The notes beneath the pieces are model-generated. The model saw only the letters and a program-made list of their open reading frames with translations, had not been told where the DNA came from and did not search any database. 64,000 nt of DNA from Patescibacteria group bacterium (GTDB taxonomy: Bacteria > Patescibacteriota > Minisyncoccia > Phycocordibacterales > JACOZG01), in contig JAYEGE010000010.1 of assembly GCA_034658935.1 (NCBI GenBank), positions 3,903 to 67,902 of the forward strand. Reading direction: 5' to 3'. A program made the position numbers and the translations under genes. Shown in pieces: positions 5,864 to 47,649 of the stretch; position 1 is the first letter of the stretch; the number at the start of each line of letters is the position of its first letter.

Positions 5864-5901
5864 GTGGACACCGAGTGTCTGGGAGTGCGACACTTGGTGT
5901 C
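5864..5901. repeat. Composite palindromic element of the GGACAC-N3-GTGTCC family. Loop is TGGGAGTGC (inverted orientation).
   Basis: The sequence GGACACCGAGTGTC-TGGGAGTGC-GACACTTGGTGTC is read directly. It is the reverse complement of the elements at 6926 and 47601. Confidence 0.8.
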
Positions 5902-6172
5902 TTGTCTTGATTGGACTATTGGGTTAAACGATTTGGATATGAGATGATTGGGCCGATGAATTTCGAGAATCCCAAAAAGTGGGTTATCTTGTGCGCCCCC
6001 ATCGCGGCTATCTCACCTATATTGTGTGATGGATCGAGATGTTACCCGGTTACCGACCCAGATACCGCCGTGGGCGGTTTTGTCTACGATCATTAGGCTG
6101 CCCCAGAACCGGCTGCGAATGTTTCTTCGACAATGTCTGACGTGCTGGTTGGCTTTTTGGGCGATTCCTAAA

Positions 6173-6207
6173 GACACAATTTGGACACGAAGTGTCCAAA
6201 TTGTGTC
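6173..6207. repeat. Perfect palindrome GACACAATTTGGACAC-GAA-GTGTCCAAATTGTGTC
   Basis: 16-bp arms with a 3-nt spacer. Core TTGGACAC-N3-GTGTCCAA. Confidence 0.85.
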
Positions 6208-6234
6208 CAAATTCTATATTTTCCCAGTGCGGCC

Positions 6235-6699
6235 TTATTCCAATTCCTTAAACTCGAACGCCTCGCTGTAATCTCCTCCCACCCCGCTAATGACACTCGC
6301 AAATTTGTTGCCAAATAGATCCTGGTAGACAAGGGTGATAGAATTACTCTCTTTCGCAAACAACTCCTCAATCAGATTTCTTGCGTATGGGAGTTTCTGT
6401 TTTATCTTATCTTTATCTATCTGGTTCAGGTCTGTTTGTTTGATAGAGCCAATACCGCCGACAGGTAGGTTTCCTACAACCATGCCTTCAGATGATAACA
6501 ACATCACGCCGTCTGGATTTCCTCGGATTATCACAATATTGAAAGCCGGTCCGTTTCCTACGTTTGTAAATTTAAACGGCTGTAAGTACTCCCCAAGGAA
6601 AGTTAACACCGACCTAGAGCCAATTTGATTCGCCTTTATTGCTTCCTTCGCAATATTCCTAGTGTGCCAAGTGTAAATTGCCAGCACAATTAGCGTCAA
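6235..6699 (-). CDS. Hypothetical protein with an N-terminal transmembrane helix. Start is TTG or CTG, not ATG.
   Basis: A 154-aa ORF with a hydrophobic N-terminus (LIVLAIYTW) followed by a soluble domain. No ATG start and no recognisable family. It lies inside the repeat-rich region between recJ and rnhA. Confidence 0.35.
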   Translation of the reverse strand: MTLIVLAIYTWHTRNIAKEAIKANQIGSRSVLTFLGEYLQPFKFTNVGNGPAFNIVIIRGNPDGVMLLSSEGMVVGNLPVGGIGSIKQTDLNQIDKDKIKQKLPYARNLIEELFAKESNSITLVYQDLFGNKFASVISGVGGDYSEAFEFKELE

Positions 6700-6862
6700 C
6701 GCCAGAGCAATGAACGTTCAAAACTCAATCGAGCAAAGGTTTCCTTTAAATTGGGTGCCCATATTTGTGTTTAGTTGACTTGTTTTCGTTTGAACTTTAC
6801 TCCCGCATGGCAACAATAATCCCATGCTCGACTAGAGTCAAGGTTCTTCTCAGGCCCGACCT

Positions 6863-6893
6863 CGAAATTTGGACACGCAGTGTCCAAATTCGT
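6863..6893. repeat. Palindrome CGAAATTTGGACAC-GCA-GTGTCCAAATTCG
   Basis: Same TTGGACAC-N3-GTGTCCAA core; arms match except for one missing T. Confidence 0.8.
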
Positions 6894-6925
6894 CGATCTC
6901 CGCCCCTCTGGCCAGGCATGACCGA

Positions 6926-6968
6926 CTTGGACACTTAGTGTCGCACTCCCAGACACTAAGTGTCCAAG
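6926..6968. repeat. Composite palindromic element CTTGGACACTTAGTGTC-GCACTCCCA-GACACTAAGTGTCCAAG
   Basis: Perfect 17-bp arms around a 9-nt loop. Each arm is itself a GACAC..GTGTC mini-palindrome. Confidence 0.85.
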
Positions 6969-6995
6969 TTGGAGGGAGTTTGGTATATTAGATAA

Positions 6996-7439
6996 ATGCA
7001 AAAGATTTTTTTAAACACTGATGGTGGGTCACGAGGAAATCCGGGGATAGCCGGCGCAGGGGCGGCGATTTCTAACGAGAGCGGCGAGGTGCTCCAGAGG
7101 GCCAGCAAGGCCCTAGGCACGATGACAAATAACGAGGCCGAGTACAGCGCTCTAATCTTGGGCTTAGAGACCGCCAAGAAGATGCTAGGTAAGGAGAAAG
7201 CCAAACAAGCGGAAGTGGTGGCCAGACTAGATAGCGAATTAGTCACTAAACAATTGAATGGCGAGTATCAAATCAAAGAGGAACGGCTCTTCCCACTCTT
7301 TATTAGAATTTGGAACATGCGCGTAGCCAACTTCGGGCAATTAAGCTTCACTTATGTTCCCCGAGAACAAAACAAAGTGGCAGATCAATTGGCCAACGAG
7401 GCAATGGATCAGCAAACAAAACAGGCTCCGCTAATGTAA
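6996..7439 (+). CDS. rnhA: Ribonuclease HI
   Basis: Contains NTDGGSRGNPGIAGAG (the TDGSxxGNPG motif) and a C-terminal DQLAN region. Length is 147 aa. Confidence 0.85.
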   Translation: MQKIFLNTDGGSRGNPGIAGAGAAISNESGEVLQRASKALGTMTNNEAEYSALILGLETAKKMLGKEKAKQAEVVARLDSELVTKQLNGEYQIKEERLFPLFIRIWNMRVANFGQLSFTYVPREQNKVADQLANEAMDQQTKQAPLM

Positions 7440-7458
7440 CCCATCTCTCCCCCTAAAA

Positions 7459-7481
7459 TGTTAAACACTCGGTGTTTAACA
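7459..7481. repeat. Palindrome TGTTAAACAC-TCG-GTGTTTAACA immediately upstream of the comEC start
   Basis: A perfect 10-bp inverted repeat with a 3-nt spacer. It is a sequence variant of the TTGGACAC-N3-GTGTCCAA architecture and a candidate operator. Confidence 0.6.
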
Positions 7482-7485
7482 CTAT

Positions 7486-8997
7486 GTGATTATGGCGTCT
7501 CGATATGTTCTTGGTATCGCGCTCGGTTTTTTCAGTGGGGTTATTTTGGCTACCTGGTGGGGTGGCATTGATTGGGCCCTAGCTGGTTTCCTGGTCTTGG
7601 TATCTCTGGTGTTACTCGCTACTCGTTACTTGGTCAGCGATAGGCCGCGGCTCTTTCTCTGTTTAGCATTGATATTAATTGGTGTAGCGCTCGGCGCAGG
7701 CCGTCTATGGTTAAATTTCGATGACACCTATCTGAAATTGGCCTCGCAGGCAGACCAGAAGGTGCAATTAGAGGGGGTAGTGGTGGAGGAACCGGACCAA
7801 CGAGATGATTATACTCGTTTGATTGTCCGCCTAAAGGACGAAGATTTTAAAATCTTAATCACTGCCCCACTCTACCCAACCTATCGTTATGGTGATGAGC
7901 TGGCGCTCACTGGTAAGCTGCGCCGCCCAGAGAATTTTACCGGTGACGCTGGGCGAGAATTCGATTACGTTAATTACTTGGCTAAGGATGATATTCGTTA
8001 TCAACTCTACCAACCAGGGGTAACTCTTCTGGCCCGCGACCAAGGTAATTGGTTGAAGGGCGGCTTACTTAAAATAAAGGGCGCTTTTCTGGGGCGAGTT
8101 AATTTAATCCTCCCTGAGCCGGAAAGCTCGCTCTTGGCTGGCCTACTCTTGGGCACTAAACAATCTCTTGGTAGTGAGTGGCTAGAGCGTTTCCAAATAG
8201 CTGGTGTTTCGCACATTATTGTCCTCTCTGGTTATAACGTTACAATCATTGCCGACAACCTTATTAAGTTCTTTGCTTTTATTCCCGCCTTACCCCGAGC
8301 GGCCGGTTGGTCGCTTGGTGGGTTATCCATAATTCTCTTTGCCATTATGACTGGCGCCGGGCCCACTGTGCTTCGCGCTTCTCTGATGGCGCTTATTGCT
8401 CTCTTTGGTCGAGCAACGGGGCGGGTTTACGATGCTAGTCTGGCTCTCCTCATTGCCGCTTTAATGATGGTGCTCATCAACCCCCAGATTCTGGTTTACG
8501 ATATCGGCTTCCAACTCTCTTTCTTGGCCACTCTCGGTTTAATTTATCTTTTGCCGGCTTTGGAACGTAGTTTTTCTTGGTTGGCCCCAAGAAAGGTTAT
8601 GAAAATTATGCGGACTTGGTGGGCCTTAGTCCGAGAGGGGATTCGTTCTATTGCTGTCTCTACTATTGCCGCTCAGATTGCTGTCCTGCCCTGGCTGCTC
8701 TATAAGATGGGAATCCTTTCTTTCGTTGCTTTGCCGGCCAATCTCCTCATCCTTGCTTCTATTCCCTTAACTATGTTCTTTGGTTTATTCGCTGGTTTAC
8801 TTGCTTTCATCTCCACCTGGTTGGCCTGGCCCTTTGCCCTCCTGGCCCACGCCTTTCTCTCCTACCAATTATTAGTCGTCCAATTCCTTTCTGACATTCC
8901 CCTCGCCGCCATCAACATCCCTCTCTTCCCTTGGTGGGCGGCTGTTTTGGCCTATGTCCTGCTTGGTTATTGGATCGCTAGACCGAAATTGCCCTAG
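7486..8997 (+). CDS. comEC: ComEC/Rec2 competence protein, N-terminal part (DUF4131 plus competence membrane domain)
   Basis: A multi-TM protein with GVSHIIVLSGYNV (ComEC competence-domain motif). It ends at a stop 20 nt before the separate MBL-domain ORF, which is in a different frame. Confidence 0.75.
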   Translation: MIMASRYVLGIALGFFSGVILATWWGGIDWALAGFLVLVSLVLLATRYLVSDRPRLFLCLALILIGVALGAGRLWLNFDDTYLKLASQADQKVQLEGVVVEEPDQRDDYTRLIVRLKDEDFKILITAPLYPTYRYGDELALTGKLRRPENFTGDAGREFDYVNYLAKDDIRYQLYQPGVTLLARDQGNWLKGGLLKIKGAFLGRVNLILPEPESSLLAGLLLGTKQSLGSEWLERFQIAGVSHIIVLSGYNVTIIADNLIKFFAFIPALPRAAGWSLGGLSIILFAIMTGAGPTVLRASLMALIALFGRATGRVYDASLALLIAALMMVLINPQILVYDIGFQLSFLATLGLIYLLPALERSFSWLAPRKVMKIMRTWWALVREGIRSIAVSTIAAQIAVLPWLLYKMGILSFVALPANLLILASIPLTMFFGLFAGLLAFISTWLAWPFALLAHAFLSYQLLVVQFLSDIPLAAINIPLFPWWAAVLAYVLLGYWIARPKLP

Positions 8998-9017
8998 GTT
9001 TTTGTTATCCTTAAATC

Positions 9018-9875
9018 ATGTCGCGATGCTGGAAGATTGCTTGGGTGGGGGTCGCAGTTTTATTGATCGGGAATATTTTGGTTTGGAGTGCTGTGGCGCG
9101 GGAAGAGCGTGGGGGAGTGCTGCAGGTAGCCTTCCTTGATGTTGGCCAAGGTGATGCTATTTATATTGAAGCACCCAATGGTAATCAAGTGTTGATAGAT
9201 GGCGGCCCCGGCAAAGCTGTCTTACGTCAATTGCCACAAGTGATGCCTTTCTACGATAAGTCTATCGACCTACTTATCGCCACCCATCCCGATGCCGACC
9301 ATATATCTGGTCTGGTATCGGTATTGGAGCGCTATCAGGTCGATTATTTCATGGAGCCCGGTGTGGAAAGCGAGACGGGAGTTTACCGAGCCTTGCAAGA
9401 AGCCGTTCAAGAAGAAGGATTAGAATCAGTTCTGGCTAGACGGGGGCTGAGAGTTAACTTAGATCCCGAGCGGAACGTCTACTTAGATATTCTATTTCCT
9501 GATCGCGATCCTAAAGGTTGGAAGAGCAATGATGCTTCTATCATTACTAAGCTGAGTTACGGCCGACACTCTTTCTTATTAACCGGGGACGCGCCTAAGA
9601 AGATGGAGCAATACGTGAGCGAGCTTAATGCCGCTGGCTTGGCGGCCACCGTACTCAAGGTCGGCCACCATGGTTCTCAGACTTCCTCTGATCAAGAATT
9701 CGTATCTGCTGTCAGTCCAGATTACGCGGTGATTTCTGTTAACGCAAATAATCGTTACGGCCACCCACATCAGGTAGTGCTCGATACCTTAGACCAACTT
9801 AAAATAAAAATTTTAGATACCACCGAGGGCAATATCCAATTTGAGACGGACGGAATTAATTTGGAACTTATTTGA
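9018..9875 (+). CDS. comEC: ComEC C-terminal metallo-beta-lactamase domain, encoded as a separate ORF with its own signal-anchor helix
   Basis: N-terminal TM helix, then DVGQGDAIYIE and HPDADHISGL (the MBL HxHxDH motif) and VGHHGS. It is homologous to the C-terminal domain of full-length ComEC. Confidence 0.75.
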   Translation: MSRCWKIAWVGVAVLLIGNILVWSAVAREERGGVLQVAFLDVGQGDAIYIEAPNGNQVLIDGGPGKAVLRQLPQVMPFYDKSIDLLIATHPDADHISGLVSVLERYQVDYFMEPGVESETGVYRALQEAVQEEGLESVLARRGLRVNLDPERNVYLDILFPDRDPKGWKSNDASIITKLSYGRHSFLLTGDAPKKMEQYVSELNAAGLAATVLKVGHHGSQTSSDQEFVSAVSPDYAVISVNANNRYGHPHQVVLDTLDQLKIKILDTTEGNIQFETDGINLELI

Positions 9876-10065
9876 TTGCTAAGTGCTTATTGGCCTTGAT
9901 GCACTTGGTACAGATACGAGCTCGGCCGCCTGCGGGTAGGGTGACCCATTGGAGATTAACCTGACGGCGGCGTTTGCCGGTCGGGTTGAATTTAGTGGCA
10001 CGGACGCGGTTGGAATATCCGCCTCCTACTTGGCTAGTTTTGGCGCAAGTCAGACAACTTTTCAT
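9868..10065 (-). CDS. rpmB: 50S ribosomal protein L28 (Zn-ribbon C+ form)
   Basis: Contains CLTCAKTSQVGGGYSNRVRATKFNPTGKRR...RICTKCIKA, matching L28 with two Cys pairs. The start was trimmed to the internal Met of the 77-aa ORF. Confidence 0.8.
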   Translation of the reverse strand: MKSCLTCAKTSQVGGGYSNRVRATKFNPTGKRRRQVNLQWVTLPAGGRARICTKCIKANKHLAIK

Positions 10066-10100
10066 GAGAGCTATGTTATCATGAGAATCAAGATCTGACA

Positions 10101-10700
10101 ATGGAGGTTATTTTTCTAGTTATCATTCTAATAATGTCGGTAGTGATCCATGAAGTCTCTCATGGTTATGTCGCCGACCTCTTGGGTGACCCGACGGCTC
10201 GCTATGCTGGTCGCCTAACTCTTAATCCGCTCAAGCATCTTGATTGGTTCGGCTCTGTTATCTTGCCAGCCTTGATGGCCCTGATGGGCGGCATCATCTT
10301 CGGCTGGGCCAAGCCTGTTCCTTATAATCCCTACAATTTAAAGGCCGGCCGTTGGGGCCCGGCCTATGTCGCTGCCGCTGGCCCAGCCTCTAATCTGGTA
10401 ATCCTCCTTTTGTTTAGCCTGGCCCTTAAGTTTTTCGGCGTAGCTTTGCCACCCGCCGCCGTGGCAATTATGGGGCTAATCGTCTTAATCAACCTGATGC
10501 TGGCCATCTTTAATCTAATCCCGGTACCCCCACTCGATGGCTCTAAGATCCTCTTCGCTCTCCTCCCTCCCCGCTGGCGCCACGTCGAGACCTGGCTCCT
10601 GCGCTATCAATGGGTCCTCATAATTCTCCTCTTGCTTGTTCTCTTAAACAGCGACGCCCTGGGCCGCATAATATTCTCTTTATTCAATTGGCTAGTCTAA
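10101..10700 (+). CDS. M50 family (site-2-protease-like) zinc metalloprotease
   Basis: HEVSHG (HExxH) in the first TM segment and the PPLDGSK (LDG) motif. The protein is polytopic. Confidence 0.75.
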   Translation: MEVIFLVIILIMSVVIHEVSHGYVADLLGDPTARYAGRLTLNPLKHLDWFGSVILPALMALMGGIIFGWAKPVPYNPYNLKAGRWGPAYVAAAGPASNLVILLLFSLALKFFGVALPPAAVAIMGLIVLINLMLAIFNLIPVPPLDGSKILFALLPPRWRHVETWLLRYQWVLIILLLLVLLNSDALGRIIFSLFNWLV

Positions 10701-10757
10701 AAGGGCTATATATTTGCATTTATGGACCAGCTGTATTAAAGTAGTGCTACTGTAAAT

Positions 10758-11168
10758 ATGCCGACGATCAATCAATTAGTTAGGAACGGGCGGAAGCAAA
10801 TCAAGCGCAAATCAAGCGCTATTGCTTTGGCGCGTGGCTATAACACCCTCAAGACTCGGCCGGTCTTCTACTCCTCACCTTTCAAGCGGGGAGTTTGTAT
10901 CCAAGTCAAGACCACCACTCCCAAGAAGCCTAACTCTGCGGTCCGAAAGATTGCTCGTGTCCGTCTAACTAATGGAATGGAAGTGACCGCTTATATCCCC
11001 GGTATGGGTCATAAATTACAAGAGCACTCCGTGGTAATGCTCCGTGGTGGCCGGGTTAAGGACTTGCCTGGTGTCCGCTACCATATTGTCCGTGGTCGCC
11101 TCGATGCTGAGGGAGTAGAGAACCGCAAGCAAAGTCGATCTAAGTATGGTGCCAAGAGGCCTAAATAA
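10758..11168 (+). CDS. rpsL: 30S ribosomal protein S12
   Basis: Starts [13 protein letters not shown]; contains PNSAVRK. Confidence 0.95.
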
Positions 11169-11170
11169 TA

Positions 11171-11695
11171 ATGCGTCGTAAAATTAAAATTAAGCATCGG
11201 CTTATGCCTGACGCGACCTACCAATCGCTCAAGGTTAGTAAGTTGATCAATTACTTAATGGAGAAGGGCCACAAGAATATCGCCCGCGACATTGTTTACG
11301 GAGCCTTTGAAGATATCAAGACTAAGACTAAGCGTGACCCGTTAGAAGTTTTTGAAGATGCTATCAATAATATTGGCCCTCTCATGGAGACCAAGTCACG
11401 ACGTGTTGGTGGTGCCAATTACCAGATCCCACATGAAGTATCACCAGAGCGTCGCTTAGCGCTAACTCTGCGTTGGTTGGTGGCCTTTGCCCGAGCTAAG
11501 AAAGGTAAGCCAATCCGTGGGTGCCTGGTAGACGAGATCTTGGCGGCAGCCAAGAACGAGGGTGAAGCAGTGAAGCGCCGCGAGAATGTCCATAAGATGG
11601 CGGAGTCTAATAGGGCCTTCGCCCACTTCGCTCGTCGGCACAAAACTTCAAGGTTGGTATTAACACCGGCCGCCGCTAGGTCCTCCATAAGATAA
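11171..11695 (+). CDS. rpsG: 30S ribosomal protein S7
   Basis: S7 signature; length 174 aa with a C-terminal extension. Confidence 0.93.
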
Positions 11696-11703
11696 CCACT
11701 ATT

Positions 11704-20465: not shown

Positions 20466-21140
20466 ATGTCTCACAGCGTCCACCCATATGCTCACCGCCT
20501 AGGAATAATCCGTGATTGGCAATCGCGCTGGTTTGCTCGTTCCGGTTCGGGCGAGTATCAAAAATGGCTCCGGGCAGATGTGCTGTTGCGGGAGTGGCTG
20601 TCTAAACGCCTCCGCGGTAATTTTGTTAAAGCGATAGAGATTGAGCGCGGTGCTACTCATATGCGTGTGATCGTCAAGACTTCTCGTCCGGGTATGGTTA
20701 TTGGCCGCAACGGGGAGAATAGCCAAAAATTACGCCAAGACATTGTCCATTTTTGGCAACAGCGGAAAATCGATCCACCCCAGGAGCTAAAATTAGACAT
20801 TGAAGAAGTTAAGAATCCAGAGTCGCATGCTCAGATTGCTGGCCAGATGATTGTTGAGGGGCTGGAGCGACGCTTCCCCTTTAAGCGAGCCGCCCGACAG
20901 GTAATAGAGAAGGTAATGGCCAATAAAAATGTTCAGGGAGTGAAAGTAACCCTCTCTGGCCGTCTGGGGGGGGCAGAGATGAGTCGCTCGGAGTCCTTCA
21001 AGAAGGGTAATTTACCTCTTCAAACTCTGCGTGCCGACCTAGACTTTGCCAAGGAGACCGCCTATTTGCCTTATGGTGTTATTGGCGTTAAGGTCTGGAT
21101 CTATCGGGGTGAGGTCTTCGGTAAAGAAACCAAAAGTTAA
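20466..21140 (+). CDS. rpsC: 30S ribosomal protein S3
   Basis: MSHSVHPYAHRLGIIRDWQSRWFA matches the S3 N-terminus. The start was trimmed to the internal Met of the 20379 ORF. Confidence 0.9.
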   Translation: MSHSVHPYAHRLGIIRDWQSRWFARSGSGEYQKWLRADVLLREWLSKRLRGNFVKAIEIERGATHMRVIVKTSRPGMVIGRNGENSQKLRQDIVHFWQQRKIDPPQELKLDIEEVKNPESHAQIAGQMIVEGLERRFPFKRAARQVIEKVMANKNVQGVKVTLSGRLGGAEMSRSESFKKGNLPLQTLRADLDFAKETAYLPYGVIGVKVWIYRGEVFGKETKS

Positions 21141-21227
21141 AATGTCAAAATTCAAATTACAAATGTCAAAAGTGGGACGAGCAAATTTTTTGAAATTTGA
21201 GCTTTGTAATTTGTAATTACCTTAATC
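21141..21227. repeat. Ribosomal-operon intergenic repeat, copy A (~87 nt; AATGTCAAA x2 ... AATTTTTTGAAATTTGNGCTTTGTAATTTG)
   Basis: Aligned by eye to the copies at 22868-22963 and 26141-26239. CAAATTACAAA can hairpin with TTTGTAATTTG. Confidence 0.8.
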
Positions 21228-21653
21228 ATGTTATTTCCCAAAAAAGTTAAATACCGCAAGTGGCAGACTCTACGCCACAACCCCAATAAGCCCAAGGTTG
21301 AAAGTCGGGGGCTACGCTTAGCTTTCGGCTCTTTTGGGATTAAGGCCGTTACCCCTGGTCGGATTCGGTCGAACCAAATCGAGGCTGCCCGTAAGGCAAT
21401 TGTTCGGGAGATTAGTAAGACCGGTAAATTATGGATCCGGATCTTCCCTGACAAGCCTTATACTAGCAAAGCGGCAGAGATTCCCATGGGCTCCGGTAAG
21501 GGTGACCCCCAGGGTTACGAAATGATCGTTTGGCCAGGCCGAATGATTTTCGAGCTTGATGGGGTAGAGGAGGCATTAGCTCGCGAAGCTCTGCGTAAAG
21601 GGGGAGCGAAATTGCCAGTTAAGACCAAACTTATTAGCCGAACGGAGGCTTAA
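21228..21653 (+). CDS. rplP: 50S ribosomal protein L16
   Basis: Starts MLFPKKVKYRKWQ. Confidence 0.93.
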   Translation: MLFPKKVKYRKWQTLRHNPNKPKVESRGLRLAFGSFGIKAVTPGRIRSNQIEAARKAIVREISKTGKLWIRIFPDKPYTSKAAEIPMGSGKGDPQGYEMIVWPGRMIFELDGVEEALAREALRKGGAKLPVKTKLISRTEA

Positions 21654-22867: not shown

Positions 22868-22963
22868 ACGATAATGTCAAAACTCAAATTACAAATAACA
22901 AAAAGAGGTCGGACGATCGAATTTTTTGAAATTTGGACTTTGTAATTTGAACTTTCAACTACC
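22868..22963. repeat. Ribosomal-operon intergenic repeat, copy B
   Basis: See copy A. It shares the 3' core AATTTTTTGAAATTTGGACTTTGTAATTTG. Confidence 0.8.
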
Positions 22964-23497
22964 ATGTCTATTACCAAAGAAAAATTAGATAAAAGTTTGT
23001 CGCAACTGAAGTCGGAACTTAATGAGACCAACTTGTTGGCTTTGCCTCGTCTGACTAAAATCGTAGTCAACACTGGTCTGGGCCGCAATAGGGATAAAAA
23101 GCATCTAGAATTAGTTACTGATAGGCTCGCAAAGATCACTGGACAAAAAGTATCTACTCGCGGAGCCAAGAAGTCAGTTGCTTCCTTTAAGGTTCGCGAA
23201 GGAGATATCATCGGGGCGGCCGTGACGTTGCGGGGCGGTCAGATGTGGGGTTTTCTCGACAAATTGCTCAATGTGGCTATTCCAAGGATTCGGGACTTTC
23301 GTGGTTTTGAGATCAAGAGCATTGATGATGTCGGCAATTTATCGATTGGTATTAAAGAGCATACGATTTTCCCAGAGACCGCTGATGAGGACTTGAAAGA
23401 TGTTTTTGGGATGACGATTACTCTGGCCACCACTGCCGGAGACAAGAAGGTTGCTCAGGCCTTTTTCCGGGCTATGGGTTTTCCTTTTAAGAAATAA
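22964..23497 (+). CDS. rplE: 50S ribosomal protein L5
   Basis: L5 family; operon order. Confidence 0.93.
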   Translation: MSITKEKLDKSLSQLKSELNETNLLALPRLTKIVVNTGLGRNRDKKHLELVTDRLAKITGQKVSTRGAKKSVASFKVREGDIIGAAVTLRGGQMWGFLDKLLNVAIPRIRDFRGFEIKSIDDVGNLSIGIKEHTIFPETADEDLKDVFGMTITLATTAGDKKVAQAFFRAMGFPFKK

Positions 23498-26140: not shown

Positions 26141-26239
26141 TCTTAGAAAATGTCAAAGTCCAAAAACCAAATGTCAAAGGAGGGTCAAATGATTAAATTT
26201 TTTGAAATTTGGGCTTTGTAATTTGGATTTATTGAATAT
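26141..26239. repeat. Ribosomal-operon intergenic repeat, copy C
   Basis: See copy A. Contains AATGTCAAAG x2 and AATTTTTTGAAATTTGGGCTTTGTAATTTG. Confidence 0.8.
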
Positions 26240-26782
26240 ATGTCACGAATTGGCAAACAAGCAATCATGATTCCCGATAAGGTGGAATGTTACCAAGAAG
26301 GCGAATCTATTACGGTAAAAGGGCCCCTGGGGACAGTGGCCAAGACTTTTCGTGATGACGTCAATATTTTGATTGCGGCTAATAATGTTACCCTGACCCC
26401 CAAGCGGATGACCGCTGGTGGGCGAGCTCTTTGGGGCACTTATGCTTCTCATATTCGGAATATGATCCAAGGTGTCACCGCTGGTTATGAGAAGAAATTA
26501 ATTATCGAGGGAGTGGGTTTCAAGGTGGCTATGGCGGGGACGAAGCTAACCTTCAATCTAGGCTGGTCTCATTCGCGAGACCTTGAAATTCCCAAGGATC
26601 TCAAAGTCAATGTTGAGAAAAACTCAATTACCGTTAGCGGAGTGAATAAGGAATCGGTCGGCCAATTTGCGGCCAAGATTAGAGCTCTGAAGAAGCCTGA
26701 GCCGTATCAGGGCAAAGGTATCCGTTATTCAGATGAGGTTGTGCGTCGCAAGGCTGGCAAGAAAGCCACTGTTGCTGCTTAA
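26240..26782 (+). CDS. rplF: 50S ribosomal protein L6
   Basis: Starts [15 protein letters not shown]. Confidence 0.93.
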
Positions 26783-29420: not shown

Positions 29421-29446
29421 TTGGACACTAAATGTCTTGGTGTTAG
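29421..29446. repeat. Degenerate copy of the TTGGACAC element (TTGGACACTAAATGTCTTGGTGTTAG)
   Basis: Read directly. Its right half overlaps the candidate extended -10. Confidence 0.5.
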
Positions 29447-37613: not shown

Positions 37614-37614
37614 A

Positions 37615-38387: not shown

Positions 38388-38418
38388 GCCCCATTTGGAC
38401 ACGTCGTGTCCAAATGGG
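38388..38418. repeat. Perfect palindrome CCCCATTTGGACAC-GTC-GTGTCCAAATGGGG
   Basis: 14-bp arms; same TTGGACAC-N3-GTGTCCAA core. It sits between divergent infC and the SDR gene. Confidence 0.85.
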
Positions 38419-38455
38419 GGCGCCGTGCCCGAGCTGGTTATGTTAAAATAGAGGT

Positions 38456-40332: not shown

Positions 40333-40367
40333 GCAAACTATTCAGAGCTCGGCTCTGAATAGTTTGC
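40333..40367. repeat. Hairpin GCAAACTATTCAGAGC-TCG-GCTCTGAATAGTTTGC. It is copy 2 of the TTCAGAGCTCGGCTCTGAA family.
   Basis: Perfect 16-bp arms. The central 19 nt are identical to the element at 5772-5802. Confidence 0.8.
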
Positions 40368-40375
40368 GAGAAAAG

Positions 40376-40407
40376 AAAAACCCCGGCAGTTCGTTGCCGG
40401 GGTTTTG
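40376..40407. terminator. Bidirectional Rho-independent terminator (CCCCGGCA-GTTCG-TTGCCGGGG flanked by A-run and T-run)
   Basis: Lies between the convergent GNAT gene and the 40431-40643 ORF. Confidence 0.75.
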
Positions 40408-40430
40408 GGGAGTTGTCGTTGCTGGGGGAT

Positions 40431-40643
40431 CTACTGGTAGAAACTCAAGAAATCCCTGACCAGCTCATCGTTGCTCCAGACTCGGGTGCCCGAGGGGACG
40501 ATCTTGTGCAGGTCTCGCTGGAGGCCTGCGCTGAGGTCGCTGATTGCCATTGGGCGACCGGCCCTGAAGGCGTTCTTTTCCGCTGTAATTCGTTGTAGTA
40601 GTTCTGCCATTACCGACCTGCTTTCTTGGTGCACATACACCAT
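40431..40643 (-). CDS. Hypothetical small protein (70 aa)
   Basis: An ORF ending just before the bidirectional terminator, downstream of the pepE-like gene. No motifs. Confidence 0.3.
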   Translation of the reverse strand: MVYVHQESRSVMAELLQRITAEKNAFRAGRPMAISDLSAGLQRDLHKIVPSGTRVWSNDELVRDFLSFYQ

Positions 40644-40723
40644 CAGATTTCACGTACCAGATACCAAAAAACAAACGCAACTTACATCCTAGCATAGTAT
40701 GGTTTATTTGTCAATAGGGTGGG

Positions 40724-41356: not shown

Positions 41357-41386
41357 GGCCAGTAGTATAGCAGAGTTGGTTTGGAC

Positions 41387-41833
41387 CTAGGGCTGCGCCT
41401 GGTCTAAGAATATTTCTATGCCAGGCAGTTCGTCTTCGACGGTGGCGAGGTTTTTTATCTCGCTGGCCGGAATCCAACTAACTTTTTCTATGGAGAGCTC
41501 TTTCTCTTTTCTTTGTTTGGTAATTGGCGTTCCGGAAATGTATTTACATAGAAACATCACTGTATTGATTTGAATATTGTCGTCGCCCTTTTTATATTCC
41601 CAATTCCAGACATAGAGAGGGCGTAGGGGATCACAGGCGACCCCAGTCTCCTCCTGGACTTCTCTCACTAGCGACTCTTTGGGAGTTTCTCCCGCATCTA
41701 TCTTCCCACCCGGCAGGGCCCATTTACCGTTTAGTTTGCTGGGCTGGAAGTGAGCCTCGGCGTATTTAAGCATCAAGACTTCACCCCGGTCGTTGACCAC
41801 CAACCCCTTCTGCGCAAAGAATTGCTTGTCCAT
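41387..41833 (-). CDS. NUDIX hydrolase
   Basis: Nudix box GGKIDAGETPKESLVREVQEETGV. Confidence 0.88.
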   Translation of the reverse strand: MDKQFFAQKGLVVNDRGEVLMLKYAEAHFQPSKLNGKWALPGGKIDAGETPKESLVREVQEETGVACDPLRPLYVWNWEYKKGDDNIQINTVMFLCKYISGTPITKQRKEKELSIEKVSWIPASEIKNLATVEDELPGIEIFLDQAQP

Positions 41834-41889
41834 ATGAGGAGAGTATAGCAGAGTGGGGGTGGGGTGGGGTTATCGTAAGGTGGGGCTTC

Positions 41890-42579
41890 CTAGTTGTTGC
41901 GCCCGCCCCCAAGTATTTTTGCTACGAGCGCTTCGTAAATAGTGACATCACTGCTTTTCATTATCGCCTTAGAACTAAAGATATCGGAGGCGTTTTTCAG
42001 GAAATCTTTTTGAATTTCTGGATGTTCTTTGCTTTCGATAATGTGCTGGTAAGATTGAGCCAATGTTTTTCGGTTGGCGTAGTCAATTCTAAGATTACCC
42101 AAGTGGGAATGTTGTTTAAGCGCGTATACAAAGACAGTTAAGAAAACGATGTTAAGTAGATAAAGTCCGGGTTCTTTGTACCAGATAACATCAAAATCGT
42201 AGATAGTTGGTCCAAAAAATGACACCAGGATTGATGCAGAGAGTAGGATGGTGGTGCCTATACCTATTTTAAACCAAAAGCTCTGTTGGCCCTTATAATC
42301 TTTTTCTTGTTCTGCATAGGCCGAAGCAAATCTACTCAACTCCATGACTCTTAATTGCTCCTCAGTTTTGGAAATCCTTTTTTCTAGGACGTCTACTTCT
42401 GACACGAGTTTGGTGTTTTCGTCTTTTAGCCCCGCAGTTTTTTTATCCGCAGCGGTTTTTTGCTTTAGATTTTCGTCGCTGAGATTAGTAAATTGTTCTT
42501 CTAGGACGGTGATTGCCTTGTCTTTCTGGAGGCCTCTCTTTTGTTCTTCGTGATAGTCACGCTTGTAGGATCTTGTCAT
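41890..42579 (-). CDS. Hypothetical membrane protein (N-terminal coiled coil, two TM helices)
   Basis: A charged heptad-like N-terminal 110 aa, then two hydrophobic helices. No family recognised. Confidence 0.45.
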   Translation of the reverse strand: MTRSYKRDYHEEQKRGLQKDKAITVLEEQFTNLSDENLKQKTAADKKTAGLKDENTKLVSEVDVLEKRISKTEEQLRVMELSRFASAYAEQEKDYKGQQSFWFKIGIGTTILLSASILVSFFGPTIYDFDVIWYKEPGLYLLNIVFLTVFVYALKQHSHLGNLRIDYANRKTLAQSYQHIIESKEHPEIQKDFLKNASDIFSSKAIMKSSDVTIYEALVAKILGGGRNN

Positions 42580-42580
42580 G

Positions 42581-42880
42581 TTATTTTTTGTGCTGTTTGT
42601 TAAACCTCGGGGCTTCTTTGCCGATAATCCGTTTTTCTATTTGTAGGGCTTGGGGCTTGTTCTCTACCTGAGCAACCTTGAACTTAGTCCCGCCGGGGAT
42701 GTGATCTTTCTTGAACTGTAGATGGTTTGTGAGGCGCTGTTGCACGTTCCCCCTACCTGCCACTCCGGTATACAGGTTTTCCCCGGCATTGTTAGTAAGC
42801 TCGTATACGATCGTTTTGTTTTTGGGCACTTTTGCGACGTTGGTTTTGTCGAACTTTTGTGGGCGGTTAAATTTGATCAT
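42581..42880 (-). CDS. Small GIY-YIG (URI-domain, YhbQ/COG2827-like) nuclease-domain protein
   Basis: IVYELTNNAGENLYTGVAGRGNVQQRLTNH matches the GIY-x10-YIG-x8-R-x2-H pattern, plus a downstream conserved Glu region. Confidence 0.5.
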   Translation of the reverse strand: MIKFNRPQKFDKTNVAKVPKNKTIVYELTNNAGENLYTGVAGRGNVQQRLTNHLQFKKDHIPGGTKFKVAQVENKPQALQIEKRIIGKEAPRFNKQHKK

Positions 42881-42961
42881 AGTGTGGATAAGTTATTTAC
42901 ATTACTAATATTGTTTGCTAACATTCAAAATATAGCATATAGAAAATAAATAGCAAACTTA

Positions 42962-43618
42962 ATGCTTACTAAGAAACAAAAAAGCGTTTTTGACTACATT
43001 AAGCGGTATGCGGAGAAGAATGAATATGCTCCCTCCCTCGAAGAGATCCAGGGGCATTTTAAGCTCGCCTCTGTCTCAACGGCCTTCTATTACATCAATA
43101 GGTTGGTGGAGGGCGGGTACCTAAAGCGAGAGGCCCATCAGGCTAGGTCGATAAGTGTCCAGCCAGATGAGGTGATTAAGTCAGCCCTTCCAAAACAGAT
43201 AAAATCCTTTTCTGTTCCAGTGCTTGGTTCGGCCAATGCTGGCGAGGCAGTCTTACGTGCAGAAGAAAATATTGAAGGGCATCTCAGGGTCTCTCGTCGT
43301 ATATTAAGTGGGAAAGACGGAGTCTTCGCTCTGCGTGTTAAGGGTGATTCAATGAACAGGGCAAAAATAGATGGTAAAAATCTTGAAGATGACGATTTCG
43401 TGCTCATTGATTCGGAGTATAAAAGTCCCAGAGATGGTGACTATGTCTTGTCTGTTATAGAAGGCCATGCCAATCTCAAGAAATTTAAGCGAGACGGTAA
43501 AACTGGTCAAGTTACGCTTATTTCTGAGTCGACGAATACCAAACACAAACCGATTTTTATTTCTGGCGACGATGATTTTATGATAAATGGTAAAATAATA
43601 AGTGTGGTGAAGAAATGA
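42962..43618 (+). CDS. lexA: LexA-like repressor (winged-HTH plus S24 peptidase domain)
   Basis: N-terminal LTKKQKSVFDYIKRY...SLEEI (LexA DNA-binding domain), VKGDSMN (Ser nucleophile) and NLKKFKR (Lys). Its stop overlaps the MTase start (ATGA). Confidence 0.8.
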   Translation: MLTKKQKSVFDYIKRYAEKNEYAPSLEEIQGHFKLASVSTAFYYINRLVEGGYLKREAHQARSISVQPDEVIKSALPKQIKSFSVPVLGSANAGEAVLRAEENIEGHLRVSRRILSGKDGVFALRVKGDSMNRAKIDGKNLEDDDFVLIDSEYKSPRDGDYVLSVIEGHANLKKFKRDGKTGQVTLISESTNTKHKPIFISGDDDFMINGKIISVVKK

Positions 43619-44769
43619 CTTTTATGAAGAAGAATATAACCCACAAACTCGCCGAATTATTTTCAGGTCCTGGCGGTTTATCGCTAGGTATTGTTTCTGC
43701 TGAAGCGGAAGATTTGGGGGGCAGGAAATATAGTGTAAGCTCGCTTTGGGCAAATGATATAGATGAGGATTCCTGCAATACTTATGCGAAAAATATACAT
43801 AATGGCGATAGAACCAACGTTTTATGCTCCCCAGTTGAAAAAATTGATTTTAAAAAGGTGCCAAAATTTGATGCACTCGCTTTTGGATTTCCGTGTAATG
43901 ATTTTAGTATAGTGGGAGAGCAGAAGGGTTTCGGTGGTAAGTATGGACCTTTATACACCTACGGTGTAAAAGCAATAAAGGAACACAACCCCAAATGGTT
44001 CATTGCTGAAAACGTCAGTGGCCTGCAAAGCGCAAACAATGGTGATGCTTTTGGGAAAATACTCGACGATTTAGAAAATGCGGGGAATGGATACGTACTT
44101 ACACCCCATCTATATAAATTTGAGGAGTACGGTGTTCCTCAGACGAGGCATAGAATTGTCATAGTCGGCATAAGAAAAGACCTCGGTCTTGAATTTAAGG
44201 TACCGACTCCCACTACTTTAGATGGATACGTTACGGCTAAGTCGGCCATTGAAGAACCGCCAATCTCAGAGTCTGCTCAAAACCACGAGCTTACAAAGCA
44301 GGCAAAGATTGTTGTAGAAAGGCTGAAACATATCCCTCCAGGCGAAAATGCCTGGTATGATGGTTTACCTGAACACCTAAGGCTCAACGTAAAATCTGCA
44401 CGTATGAGTCAAATTTATAAACGACTACATCCCAAGAAACCGTCATACACGATAACGGGAAGTGGCGGTGGGGGAACACATGGGTATCATTGGACAGAGA
44501 ATCGTGCCCTTACAAATAGGGAGAGGGCTCGCATTCAGACCTTTCCTGACAGTTTTATATTTGATGGCTCTAAGGAGAGTGTGCGAAAACAAATAGGCAT
44601 GGCCGTACCGGTCAGGGGGGCGAAGATTATCGCGGAGGCCGTGCTTAAAACTTTTGCGGGCGTTACTTATGAATGGATTCCACCCAGAATAACAAATGGT
44701 AACGGTCGTGATAAAAGTAATACTAAACAGACACCACTGTTTAATAAAACTGACCTACAGCCTGTTTAA
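43615..44769 (+). CDS. DNA (cytosine-5)-methyltransferase
   Basis: Motif I LFSGPGGLSLG, motif IV FGFPCNDFSIVG (PC dipeptide), motif VI ENV, and a C-terminal TRD. Confidence 0.9.
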   Translation: MTFMKKNITHKLAELFSGPGGLSLGIVSAEAEDLGGRKYSVSSLWANDIDEDSCNTYAKNIHNGDRTNVLCSPVEKIDFKKVPKFDALAFGFPCNDFSIVGEQKGFGGKYGPLYTYGVKAIKEHNPKWFIAENVSGLQSANNGDAFGKILDDLENAGNGYVLTPHLYKFEEYGVPQTRHRIVIVGIRKDLGLEFKVPTPTTLDGYVTAKSAIEEPPISESAQNHELTKQAKIVVERLKHIPPGENAWYDGLPEHLRLNVKSARMSQIYKRLHPKKPSYTITGSGGGGTHGYHWTENRALTNRERARIQTFPDSFIFDGSKESVRKQIGMAVPVRGAKIIAEAVLKTFAGVTYEWIPPRITNGNGRDKSNTKQTPLFNKTDLQPV

Positions 44770-45591
44770 AAGTTCCCGCCAACTTTTTTTATCTCGGTGA
44801 AGTCGGCCCGATTTGATGACGTATCTGTGGCCGTCGAAAGTTTGACCTGGGATAGAGGTTACTTTCTCAAGTTCATCCTTGTAACAATATCCTGCTATTT
44901 CGCACGGGATATTACCTAGATCAGGAATATCATTCTTGTATTTGTCATAGTGCGGTTGACCTGAGACAAGTTTGGTTATCTCGGACTTTGAGACTCGCAA
45001 TAAATGGTCGTCTTCTAGGGCTGGTCGACAGTATATATAAACGTCAGAGCTTCTTTCGGGTATCTCGACCTCGTTCCCGCCCAGTACGAGGTACGCACTT
45101 TTGGGCTTGGATGATTTAATGCCTACTCCTATTGAGGGTTCTACCCATTTGCTCCTTTTTAGCACTTTTGTTATATCTTGCGGAACAATGTTGGGGTGTA
45201 TATCAAAATCTAGCTCTACGCTGACGTTAAATTTCTGTTTAAAAAATTTTTGAACAGCAATCTCGCCCAACTGTCCCTTTACCCAATTTGTAACTTTTTG
45301 ACCAAATTCCCTGATTCTACTGGTGCCCCAATCAGAAGTTACATATCCTCTAAAATGTTGTGCTAACACAAAGTCCATACATCTGGCGTAGTCATCCCTA
45401 TCGAGGGCGATAGTCCTTTGGTCGTAATCTTTTCTCCATTCTTCCAGATCGGTTTTATTAAACGTAAATCTACCTCTTCCCGCTCTGGGTAGTGGAGTTA
45501 TCTCGTCCGCATTTTTGAAGTAATTCTCAAAAGTTTTCTCGTCTAGTTCGAGAAATTTCACGGCTTCTTTTTTAGTCAAGATATCTGGCAT
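44755..45591 (-). CDS. Putative restriction endonuclease with an N-terminal excisionase-type HTH (HTH_17-like)
   Basis: It is convergent with and overlaps the 3' end of the C5-MTase gene. The N-terminus LTKKEAVKFLELDEKTF...RFTFNKTDLEEWRK resembles the phage Xis/MerR-type HTH. The C-terminal domain is unassigned. Confidence 0.45.
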   Translation of the reverse strand: MPDILTKKEAVKFLELDEKTFENYFKNADEITPLPRAGRGRFTFNKTDLEEWRKDYDQRTIALDRDDYARCMDFVLAQHFRGYVTSDWGTSRIREFGQKVTNWVKGQLGEIAVQKFFKQKFNVSVELDFDIHPNIVPQDITKVLKRSKWVEPSIGVGIKSSKPKSAYLVLGGNEVEIPERSSDVYIYCRPALEDDHLLRVSKSEITKLVSGQPHYDKYKNDIPDLGNIPCEIAGYCYKDELEKVTSIPGQTFDGHRYVIKSGRLHRDKKSWRELLNRL

Positions 45592-45825
45592 AACAATACA
45601 TTTGTAATTTTCACTATGCCCGATTCCCGTCGATTTTTCAAGCTACTCTCTCGTGACGGCACAGCCTGGTCTCGCATTTGGGCGGACGCTTCGCTATCTC
45701 ACTCGCTACGCCCCGGCATATGCGGCTCCGCTCTTTCAAAACCCACGGTTTTGAATAATTTCCTCCACGGGGAACTCCCGTTCCCCGACCCCCTCCCTGG
45801 TTCGATTCCGCCCATCTCACTGCTT

Positions 45826-45863
45826 TTTTCTTTGAAAAAACAAAACACCCCAGCAGGGGTGTT
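45826..45863 (-). terminator. Rho-independent terminator downstream of tmRNA (ACACCCC-UGCU-GGGGUGU plus U-run on the minus strand)
   Basis: A GC hairpin followed by TTTTGTTTTTT on the minus strand. A second hairpin CCCCTCGAT..ATCGAGGGG lies at 45896-45925. Confidence 0.7.
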
Positions 45864-45926
45864 TTGCGCTGAAGCTACGGAGTGCCGCGCACCGCGAAGC
45901 CCCTCGATAGTAATCGAGGGGCGAAG

Positions 45927-46349
45927 TGGTGGAGATGGGCGGAATCGAACCGCCGTTCAAATAGTTGTTGTAAGAGAATCTACGTGTGTAGCTAGTTTTT
46001 TGTTTTAAGCTCAGTACCTATAAAGCCAGCAAAACAATACTGAGCCGGACCTCTAAGTTTTCGGATCCTTAGCGAGATAGACTAAGGGACCTAGCTCGCG
46101 AGAATTACACTCTAGTCCGCGGCACGAGCGCCTGACGGGTAGAATGCCTACTTAAGCCTACAACACTAAAAGTGTCGGCCGGCGCTGAAAGCGCTTAGGC
46201 TAAAGCGAAAGCAGGGGTGAAGTATGGCGAAGCCACACCTCGGTCAGATGAATTGGCATTTATCTGGTTTGCCAACAGGTTTACGAGTCTTTTGGCCTCC
46301 TCGACACGCACACTTAAAACAGGACTACCTGTCTAAGCCGATCATCCCC
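45927..46349 (-). ncRNA. ssrA: tmRNA (SsrA)
   Basis: On the minus strand the 5' end is GGGGAUGAUCGGCUUAGACAGG, a shape comparable to E. coli GGGGCUGAUUCUGGAUUCGACGGG. A PK1-like CGAGGAGGCC...CUCGUAAA is present. The candidate tag ORF is ...GCU UUC GCU UUA GCC UAA (…PAFALA*). The 3' end is GGCGGUUCGAUUCCGCCCAUCUCCACCA, which is T-arm, acceptor and CCA. It lies immediately downstream of smpB. Confidence 0.75.
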
Positions 46350-46350
46350 A

Positions 46351-46794
46351 TTATTGGTTTTTCAAGGTTCGCTGGATCTCGATATCCGTCTCGCGTTTCT
46401 TGATGATACTGCGCTTGTCGCGTTTCTTCTTACCTCGGGCTATAGCTAGCTCTAGCTTCAAGCGTCGTCCTTTATTATACACAGCAAGCGGGATAATTGT
46501 CAACCCCTTCTTATCCTCAACTCCCCCTAATTGTTCCAATTCCTTTTTCGTTAGTAGTAGCCGGAGATTGCGGTCTCCCTCATGCCCCTCAGGTATGTTT
46601 TTGGCTTGGTAGGGATGGATACTCGCGCCAACTAAATAGGCTTCACCCCCACGGACAAGGACTCGAGACCCAGTCAAATTAGCTTCACCGGCGCGGAGGG
46701 ATTTCACTTCATGGCCATAGAGTTCTAGGCCCGCTTCAAAGCGCTCAAGAATTTCGTAATCAAAACTAGCCTTTTTGTTGCTTACCAGGGCCAT
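46351..46794 (-). CDS. smpB: SsrA-binding protein SmpB
   Basis: Contains FDYEILERFEAGLELYGHEVKSLR and a C-terminal basic tail. Confidence 0.95.
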   Translation of the reverse strand: MALVSNKKASFDYEILERFEAGLELYGHEVKSLRAGEANLTGSRVLVRGGEAYLVGASIHPYQAKNIPEGHEGDRNLRLLLTKKELEQLGGVEDKKGLTIIPLAVYNKGRRLKLELAIARGKKKRDKRSIIKKRETDIEIQRTLKNQ

Positions 46795-46898
46795 GGCCCC
46801 ATTTTAGCACCCCCGTCTCCGTTGTCGATCGTTGGGCGAGGCAGGAGTCTTGACCTGGGGGCCTTAATATAGAAGTATGGGGTTAGAAGTTCGGCGTT

Positions 46899-47504
46899 GT
46901 GCTGAATAAAAGTACCTTGTTGGGGGCTATCAATACAGGAGATGCGTTGATGAGCGGTAAGACGATGATTCAGATTTTGGTGTTTGTCGTGTTGGCCGCG
47001 GTGGTGGTATCGGCGAGATTGGTGGGGCATTTGCCCAATTTTACGCCCATCATTGCTGTGTCGCTTTTCGCGGGCTTCTTCTTCGCTCAGCGTTGGCTGG
47101 CGATCGTTCTGATCGTGGCGGCGATGGGGATTAGCGACTTGTTCCTCGGTTTTTACCAACCGGCGATCATGTTGGTGGTGTATGCGAGTTTGCTCTTGCC
47201 GATCGCGGCACGTAGTATTCTGCGGAAGGGGCTAACCGTGCCTCGTATCGGATTGACCGCGGTGGGCTGCTCGTTTACCTTCTTTCTGGCGACAAACCTA
47301 GCCGTGTGGCTGTTCTCCGGGATGTATGTCCTGACGATCACTGGTCTGGTGGAGTGCTACGTTGCGGCCCTGCCATTCTACAAGTACCAGCTAATGGGTG
47401 ATGCGTTTTGGACGACATCTCTGTTTGGCTGCTACGCCCTCTCCGGCCTTGAAAGAAGGCCCGGCGAGGCCCCATCGTCCTTTGGGTTAGCGTTGGAAGG
47501 TTGA
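46899..47504 (+). CDS. Hypothetical polytopic membrane protein (about 5 TM; possibly a small-molecule or ECF-type substrate-binding component)
   Basis: A hydrophobic 201-aa ORF. No catalytic motifs. Confidence 0.45.
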   Translation: MLNKSTLLGAINTGDALMSGKTMIQILVFVVLAAVVVSARLVGHLPNFTPIIAVSLFAGFFFAQRWLAIVLIVAAMGISDLFLGFYQPAIMLVVYASLLLPIAARSILRKGLTVPRIGLTAVGCSFTFFLATNLAVWLFSGMYVLTITGLVECYVAALPFYKYQLMGDAFWTTSLFGCYALSGLERRPGEAPSSFGLALEG

Positions 47505-47566
47505 TGACGTAGGTTAGGCCCAGACACTCCGTGATAGGCCCGCCATGTAGGCGGGCAGGCAAGCAA

Positions 47567-47584
47567 GATCCGCCGCGGCGGATG
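47567..47584. repeat. Palindrome GATCCGCCGCGGCGGATG (copy 1; a second copy is at 50863-50880)
   Basis: An identical 16-nt core ATCCGCCGCGGCGGAT at both loci. An adjacent hairpin GCCCGCC-ATGTA-GGCGGGC is at 47539-47557. Confidence 0.75.
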
Positions 47585-47600
47585 TTTAAATCCAAATATC

Positions 47601-47649
47601 AAACTTGGACACTCGGTGTCGCACACCCAGACACCAAGTGTCCAAGTTT
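47601..47649. repeat. Composite palindromic element AAACTTGGACACTCGGTGTC-GCACACCCA-GACACCAAGTGTCCAAGTTT
   Basis: 17-20-bp arms with one mismatch. Same family as 6926-6968, and directly followed by a terminator hairpin. Confidence 0.85.

Follow-up and report, generated by a model that had tools for sequence, protein, structure and literature searches.

A dispersed family of REP/REPIN-type hairpin palindromes in a Patescibacteria genome, most likely served in trans by a RAYT-like Y1 transposase

Repetitive extragenic palindromes (REPs), and the hairpin-forming REP doublets known as REPINs, have been described together with a REP-associated tyrosine transposase (RAYT, also TnpA_REP) in Escherichia, Pseudomonas, and Stenotrophomonas (PMC3116915, PMC3337134, PMC5581495, PMC6006769). 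A family of elements of this type is reported here from a stretch of 64,000 nucleotides of a Patescibacteria group bacterium (assembly GCA_034658935.1, contig JAYEGE010000010.1), referred to as the window, within which all positions are numbered from the first nucleotide. The elements have the form TTGGACAC-N3-GTGTCCAA, are present singly or as inverted doublets, and are most likely spread and maintained in trans by a RAYT-like transposase of the Y1 (HUH) type, the gene for which is flanked by copies of the palindrome in related genomes.

The likeness to the REP-RAYT systems lies in the dispersed short palindromes, singles as well as inverted doublets forming one long hairpin; in a Y1/HUH gene that is bracketed by the same palindromes and far less numerous than they are; in the apparently fixed locus and slow evolution of that gene; and in the co-variation of the palindrome with the transposase lineage. 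There are also differences. The host here belongs to the Patescibacteria, with genomes of approximately 1 Mb, the palindromes are perfect with a strict 3 nt loop, one 16 nt core is identical across many candidate phyla, and many copies lie in frame in essential genes and in the transposase gene itself. The transposases score below the NCBIfam cutoff for RAYT, and there is no evident GTAG-type tetranucleotide (PMC6006769) at the foot of the hairpin.

Two other kinds of element are comparable. The IS200/IS605 insertion sequences and the palindrome-associated transposable elements (PATEs) share the transposase superfamily (PF01797) and, by analogy, the recognition of hairpins in single-stranded DNA; in contrast to IS200/IS605, the same palindrome is found here on both flanks, the gene apparently occupies one syntenic locus, and the inspected loci showed no TnpB partner. 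Rickettsia palindromic elements (RPEs) are 100–150 bp in length and lie in frame in protein-coding genes of a reduced genome, and we know of no transposase associated with them. In-frame palindromic insertion in a reduced genome, with an added peptide that is tolerated by the host protein, is common to the RPEs and the present family, whereas the elements here are of 25–57 nt and the host lineages are unrelated.

This analysis identified nine elements in the window, counting both TTGGACAC-N3-GTGTCCAA and its double-palindrome forms, where approximately 0.1 would be expected by chance, a density of about one per 7–8 kb. For TTGGACACNNNGTGTCCAA, three perfect matches (6181, 6869, and 38395) and two with two mismatches (6927 and 47605) were found, with 0.02 matches expected from dinucleotide-preserving shuffles. 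Allowing up to three mismatches, there are nine matches compared with 0.1 expected, including both halves of the composite elements at 6925–6969 and 47600–47650, as well as 55503 and 55537. The shorter core GACAC-N3-GTGTC occurs nine times, and perfect inverted repeats with a stem of at least 9 bp and a loop of 3–12 nt are far above the level in shuffled sequence. Although four of the elements cluster in a 1.2 kb island at 5.8–7.0 kb, the family is spread over 50 kb and is not confined to one duplicated segment. The window thus contains short, dispersed, over-represented hairpin palindromes, as is characteristic of REPs and REPINs.

Four of the elements are inverted doublets able to form one long hairpin (5864–5901, 6925–6969, 47600–47650, and 55501–55557). 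For the composites as single-stranded DNA, folding energies are −20 to −24 kcal/mol (z = −7.5 to −10), compared with −9.7 kcal/mol (z = −4.9) for the decayed doublet at 5864–5901. A preliminary description of this DNA had proposed a dispersed palindromic repeat family with composite forms, which is borne out, and had placed its members correctly to within 1–3 nt. It had named three composites with a shared 9 nt loop, GCAC(T/A)CCCA, and this loop is present in all three. The perfect 17 bp stems that it assigned to them hold for 6925–6969, where 18 bp are perfectly paired, but not for 47600–47650 (one C·A mismatch) or 5864–5901 (one mismatch). Likewise, of the eight instances that it listed as intergenic, the one at 29421–29446 is only a decayed remnant, and a ninth element, at 55501–55557, was overlooked and lies within the gene for arginyl-tRNA synthetase (ArgRS). 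With composites that are not all perfect and copies that are not all intergenic, the preliminary description is essentially right and requires these two corrections.

The exact 16 nt core was next sought in one genome per GTDB species, which gave at least 117 loci. Among the matches listed, at least approximately 56 loci come from at least approximately 38 Patescibacteria metagenome-assembled genomes (MAGs), assigned by lineage name or gene content, so that the comparison with relatives suggested earlier finds the core in many other members of the group. The lineages among these matches include Saccharibacteria, Paceibacterota, and Moran-, Taylor-, Niyogi-, Campbell-, Nealson-, Yonath-, Giovannoni-, and Zambryskibacteria; the MAGs range from 31 to 54 % GC and often contain several loci each. 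Single copies and inverted doublets are both present in them, doublets being common (L013, L015, L017, L042, L076, L077, L101, and L109), and the loop triplets are typical of each genome. In 70 copies, the two positions just outside the core are paired in 93 % and 80 %, with four pair types, and pairing drops to about 40 % farther out; beyond the core the stem simply continues with (A/T)(C/T). Judging by this co-variation of the flanks and by the arms of the ArgRS doublet, the hairpin is maintained.

At least 43 of the listed loci (in the range L004–L116) are from a single Coriobacteriales MAG (JAISGJ01), and the remainder are scattered single matches, as chance predicts. In this actinobacterial MAG, of 65 % GC, a multi-hairpin repeat about 110 nt long is present in over 50 copies, and its central hairpin is exactly TTGGACAC-GCA-GTGTCCAA. 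These copies were considered as members of the same family and rejected, as theirs is a different repeat with only the central hairpin in common; a tblastn search of the Coriobacteriales loci found no Y1 transposase gene. A shared origin of the Coriobacteriales and Patescibacteria hairpins is conceivable, Actinobacteria being hosts of Saccharibacteria.

The transposase was first traced through three open reading frames (ORFs) that carry copies of the palindrome and translate to IS200-like proteins, tblastn then giving nine transposase loci (L007, L030, L050, L060, L075, L076, L081, L089, and L102), all obtained via the motif. In six of the nine (L007, L030, L075, L076, L089, and L102), exact-core copies are present approximately 20–90 nt from the gene on both sides; L050 and L060 have a core copy on one side only, and in L081 the contig ends within the gene. 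Five loci also have in-frame copies within the transposase gene, at two alternative positions. All eight complete genes exceed the Pfam cutoff for PF01797 (Y1_Tnp), the best NCBIfam match is REP_Tyr_transpos, and both the N-H-x-H motif, which contains the HUH histidines, and the tyrosine are invariant in the transposase alignment (A2). There are at least 7989 database proteins of this family in Patescibacteria, annotated by NCBI as 'transposase' and, for some members, by JGI as 'REP element-mobilizing transposase RayT'. Many of the contigs that bear the gene are merely 1–3 kb long. A link to oriC was considered because of DnaA-box-like words beside copies in L030, L007, and L032; these turned out to be transposase gene flanks, and the link was rejected. 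GC skew is monotonic across the window.

Because these nine loci had been found through the motif, 80 metagenome loci were fetched by protein similarity alone. Only five of the 80 have the motif within two mismatches, and following this up showed that the palindrome differs from lineage to lineage, most of the protein-selected loci being flanked by a perfect one of their own with a 3 nt loop. Where both flanks were available (66 loci), such a palindrome is present upstream in 37 and downstream in 35, and in 22 the apical stem is the same on both sides; in control windows elsewhere in the same loci, it is present in 43 out of 746. From these flanks, the bracketing architecture is general, and the sequence of the palindrome tracks the transposase lineage, as it does in classical REP-RAYT pairs.

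The clade nearest to the L007 transposase (77–86 % identity, including L200–L203) is flanked by AAATTGGACAT-ccg/cgg-ATGTCCAATTT, at −39 and across the stop codon, which is the ACAT/ATGT subtype of the ArgRS doublet in the window. Five loci of this clade have the same convergent neighbour, Pterin_4a, beside the transposase, and the identity in these loci is 77–86 % for the transposase compared with 52–78 % for Pterin_4a. Conserved synteny and an identity higher than that of the neighbour are consistent with slow evolution of a gene fixed at one locus, rather than with an insertion sequence.

In the relatives, approximately 30 out of 70 copies (about 40 %) are within long ORFs. Nine of ten host ORFs tested are bona fide housekeeping genes in which Pfam domains flank the element on either side, namely ArgRS (where the site is that of the window copy), PheT, ComEC, ValRS, GluRS, MnmA, TsaD, Dus, and PyrF. 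The PheT of one Saccharibacteria MAG (L077, 3958–6363) also has a whole foreign domain, NlpC/P60. The extragenic location that is characteristic of REPs is therefore not observed throughout, one of the nine window copies being in ArgRS and many copies in the relatives being intragenic. Compared at the level of sequence, orthologous sites differ in the presence or absence of an element (L034, ArgRS, and ComEC). For example, a doublet is present in ComEC of L013 and L015 but absent from that of the window, and L034 has a 50 nt insertion with a palindrome at a site where the window (around 34940) runs straight from the stop codon into the intergenic region. No target-site duplication is discernible at this one filled and empty pair, the flanks of which are only about 70 % identical.

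The element at 55501–55557 is an inverted doublet of the ACAT/ATGT subtype with perfect 23 bp arms and an 11 nt spacer. The host ORF (54039–55814) has all three Pfam domains of an ArgRS, and the element contributes 19 codons, in frame, at the start of the DALR domain. The aligned segment has 61 residues here compared with 48–53 in about 100 of the 120 closest homologues, 11–13 amino acids above the modal length, and a few other homologues have unrelated insertions at the same spot. The element-encoded stretch (residues 482–500 of 585) overlaps the sole run with a predicted local distance difference test (pLDDT) score below 50 (residues 489–502), a loop between two helices, in an AlphaFold2 model with a mean pLDDT of 90.1. 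In either arm, the small hairpin is weakened by a change that has its match in the opposite arm, so that the 23 bp long hairpin remains perfect. There is no stop codon in any frame of the element unless the loop supplies one. On the basis of the model, the in-frame insertion appears to be tolerated by the host protein, which is a likeness to the Rickettsia-type elements in behaviour, not membership of that family. In ArgRS homologues from other members of the candidate phyla radiation (CPR; P0153, P0173, P0229, P0156, P0143, and P0231), different insertions of 15–25 residues are present in the same loop, some of them peptides typical of translated palindromes, such as LGNASGKFPEALPRG; hairpin elements may have inserted repeatedly in this loop.

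It is highly likely that these are REP/REPIN-type elements spread and maintained in trans by a RAYT-like Y1 (HUH) transposase, in agreement with the REP/MITE-type genomic repeat (MITE, miniature inverted-repeat transposable element) that the preliminary description had favoured, given their REP/REPIN architecture and the copies flanking the transposase gene in related genomes. In such a system, the short hairpin palindromes, single or as inverted doublets folding into one long hairpin, would be non-autonomous, and the transposase would be a single-copy, vertically inherited protein acting in trans. By analogy with the RAYTs of E. coli and Pseudomonas and with IS200/IS605, it would recognize, bind, and cleave the hairpin in single-stranded DNA, and movement would proceed via single-stranded DNA at replication forks. 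The same analogy predicts that this genome still encodes the enzyme, and its cognate gene would be expected to be bracketed by AATTTGGACAC-N3-GTGTCCAAATT. The family and its architecture, its spread in Patescibacteria, the flanking of the transposase gene in relatives, the differences in presence between orthologous sites, and in-frame residence are established directly.

Several results weigh against this explanation. No transposase homologue was found by tblastn in 76.5 kb of this genome (the window and 12.5 kb of L001/L119), and the three closest transposase homologues looked up are all from other samples; mobility in this genome is what we infer from comparisons of sequence. The link between the exact motif and the transposase is limited to the nine motif-selected loci, the five out of 80 protein-selected loci, and L200–L203, and the latter two sets all carry ACAT or a similar close variant. 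The transposases score 27–44 bits against the NCBIfam RAYT equivalog NF047646, below its cutoff of 80, and on this basis form a clade distant from the curated equivalog. Searched as a profile, the transposase alignment matched no solved structure at E ≤ 0.01. In 34 sets of palindromes flanking transposases, no conserved tetranucleotide of the GTAG type is evident beyond the stems. Finally, one 16 nt core identical in genomes of 31 to 54 % GC is unusual for REPs, and could reflect an additional function at the level of the host.

It is unlikely that the hairpins are primarily RNA elements of the host, whether terminators, mRNA-stabilizing 3′ hairpins, or processing sites, with a secondary link to the transposase. 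Five of the nine copies are 3–140 nt past a stop codon (5864, 6173, 7459, 29421, and 47600), one is right before a canonical terminator, the hairpins are very stable, and classical REPs stabilize upstream mRNA. However, no T runs follow the copies, the copy at 47600 has a separate terminator downstream, both orientations are present, and those copies in coding sequence cannot be terminators. The bracketing of the transposase gene by the same palindrome would also be left unexplained. Some copies may secondarily act as putative RNA 3′-end or stabilizing hairpins.

An ordinary autonomous insertion sequence of the IS200/IS605 type, with the palindromes as its solo ends or as PATEs, is improbable. 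The transposase belongs to Pfam Y1_Tnp and does not reach the cutoff of the RAYT equivalog, a faint match to IS200 is seen for one member, the gene is bracketed by hairpins in the manner of IS200/IS605 ends, and contigs as short as those that carry it are expected of repeats. On the other hand, the left and right ends of IS200/IS605 are distinct, whereas the flanking hairpins here have the same sequence. The palindromes also far outnumber the genes, with nine copies and no gene in the window and four to five motif loci without a gene in several MAGs; the gene has a fixed neighbour that is less conserved than the transposase, and no TnpB partner was seen beside it in the inspected loci.

The preliminary description had also raised the possibility of an operator, the 19 bp dyad being bound in duplex DNA by a dimeric helix-turn-helix regulator, and the composites by two dimers 22 bp apart. 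This is very unlikely. The dyad is perfect, its central 3 nt are variable, the dyad centres in the composites are indeed 22 bp apart, and some copies are upstream of genes (6925–6969 and 38389–38419, for example). Furthermore, the operator eilOc (AAAGTTGGACACGTGTCCAACTTT) of the TetR-family repressor EilR, a lone enterobacterial site rather than a family of repeats, has the identical half-site, GTTGGACAC|GTGTCCAAC (PMC6127294). The EilR operator has no spacer, however, compared with 3 nt in the dyad here, and with this wrong spacing the match is regarded as a coincidence. The search for a cognate regulator found no regulator gene adjoining any copy in the window, gene contexts are heterogeneous with no conserved regulon across genomes, about 40 % of the copies in relatives are in frame in housekeeping genes, and many others are just past stop codons. 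The flanking positions co-vary, each genome has loop triplets of its own, and orthologous sites differ in whether they carry the element. In the doublets even the 'spacers' are complementary to each other, which a duplex-bound protein would not need.

The DNA uptake sequences of Neisseria are often in inverted pairs. That the elements are such sequences, serving a competence machinery of ComEC and type IV pili, can be dismissed, despite the presence of ComEC in the window, pilus genes just upstream, and natural competence in Saccharibacteria (PMC10187176), because outside the palindromes the half-site shows no enrichment (in 64 kb, GGACAC is present 11 times and GTGTCC 13 times compared with about 16 expected, approximately half being inside palindromes) and the transposase link would be unexplained.

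The REP/REPIN explanation can tentatively be carried further, to an ancient, vertically inherited RAYT-REP pair with a hairpin that is nearly invariant across lineages of class to phylum level and that routinely colonizes essential genes, among them those for aminoacyl-tRNA synthetases, ComEC, and TsaD as well as that of the transposase itself, as in-frame loop insertions, although this stronger form is somewhat doubtful. If true, a selfish hairpin element would regularly generate differences in protein length in bacteria whose genomes are among the smallest, and in-frame copies in aminoacyl-tRNA synthetases and ComEC would provide a concrete mechanism for odd insertions in CPR proteins. CPR genomes are usually called streamlined, and a high-copy hairpin with a conserved, domesticated-looking transposase would alter this picture. 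Searches of the open-access literature gave nothing relevant on REP-RAYT, REPINs, extragenic palindromes, or IS200 in CPR, and two large RAYT/Y1 surveys do not mention CPR. The strict design, with a stem of about 10 bp, a 3 nt loop, and a lineage-specific sequence, would offer a clean system for the study of hairpin reading by Y1 enzymes, the more so as Saccharibacteria are now genetically tractable. The elements are also potentially usable as strain-typing markers.

Four of the window elements are in the island downstream of recJ. The first, at 5864–5901 on the minus strand, is a decayed inverted doublet (GACAC-N3-GTGTC / GCACTCCCA / GACAC-N3-GTGTC), 139 nt past the RecJ stop codon, with a 13 bp stem and decayed outer ends. 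A single palindrome at 6173–6207, with a perfect 16 bp stem and a GAA loop, is 28 nt after the stop codon of a minus-strand ORF (6235–6699) and has an extra half-copy at 6200–6213. Another single palindrome, at 6866–6890, has a perfect 11 bp stem and a GCA loop. The doublet at 6925–6969, upstream of the RNase H gene, has the 9 nt loop GCACTCCCA and its perfect long stem. An independent Logan assembly of the same organism has a contig end at window position 6966, within this element; the elements appear to break short-read assemblies, which bears on MAG quality. The island itself, of 1.19 kb, is bracketed by a direct repeat of about 29 nt (5701–5729 and 6891–6919, about 83 % identical) that duplicates the last recJ codons. 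It contains four palindromic elements and the orphan ORF 6235–6699, which encodes a membrane helix, has no Pfam match, and has an in-frame TGA just upstream. Judged from the sequence, the island resembles a scar left by an insertion into recJ at its 3′ end.

The remaining elements are more widely spaced. Between the RNase H stop codon and the ComEC start is the variant palindrome TGTTAAACAC-TCG-GTGTTTAACA (7459–7481), with a 10 bp stem in which both core changes are compensated (GG→AA by CC→TT). The remnant at 29421–29446 is 3 nt past the SecY stop codon and weak, with four mismatches; it forms no significant hairpin, its fold being no better than those of shuffled sequences. A single palindrome at 38389–38419, with a perfect 14 bp stem and a GTC loop, is between a divergent infC-like gene and an SDR gene. 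The doublet at 47600–47650, in the 3′ region of the DUF6580 gene, has a 21 bp stem containing its C·A mismatch and the loop GCACACCCA. The intrinsic terminator said to follow one composite directly is found just after it, at 47654–47680 (47654–47673 plus a T run).

Other palindromes with 3 nt loops are present. One family, CTGTTCAGAGC-TCG-GCTCTGAACAG, has copies at 5772–5802 and 40333–40367, which are distinguished by a compensated pair of changes, G→A in one arm and C→T in the other; the latter copy is followed by a terminator at 40377–40406. As it is of the same structural class as the palindromes that flank other Y1 lineages, this may be a second REP family. A third palindrome, TGTCAAGGT-N3-ACCTTGACA, occurs twice in L119 (14289–14325 and 15462–15482), about 6–7.5 kb beyond the end of the window.

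There are also repeats and islands of other kinds. An A/T-rich repeat of about 95–110 nt with internal inverted arms fills three intergenic gaps of the ribosomal-protein operon (21139–21245, 22870–22981, and 26146–26257), and a partial inverted copy is within IleRS (57401–57447). A low-GC island (41890–45591, 0.41–0.45) adjoins the tmRNA gene (45927–46349, minus strand) and encodes a GIY-YIG protein, a LexA-like S24 repressor, a C5 cytosine methyltransferase, and a probable restriction enzyme; from this gene content, it is probably a restriction-modification element integrated at the tmRNA locus. The IleRS (56770–60447), of 1225 amino acids, has a whole foreign histidine-phosphatase domain (His_Phos_1) inserted between the two halves of its catalytic domain. 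An Rfam scan of the window found only the tmRNA and one tRNA. The window contains a tRNA-Ile with the anticodon TAT (50646–50718), an uncommon way for bacteria to read AUA.

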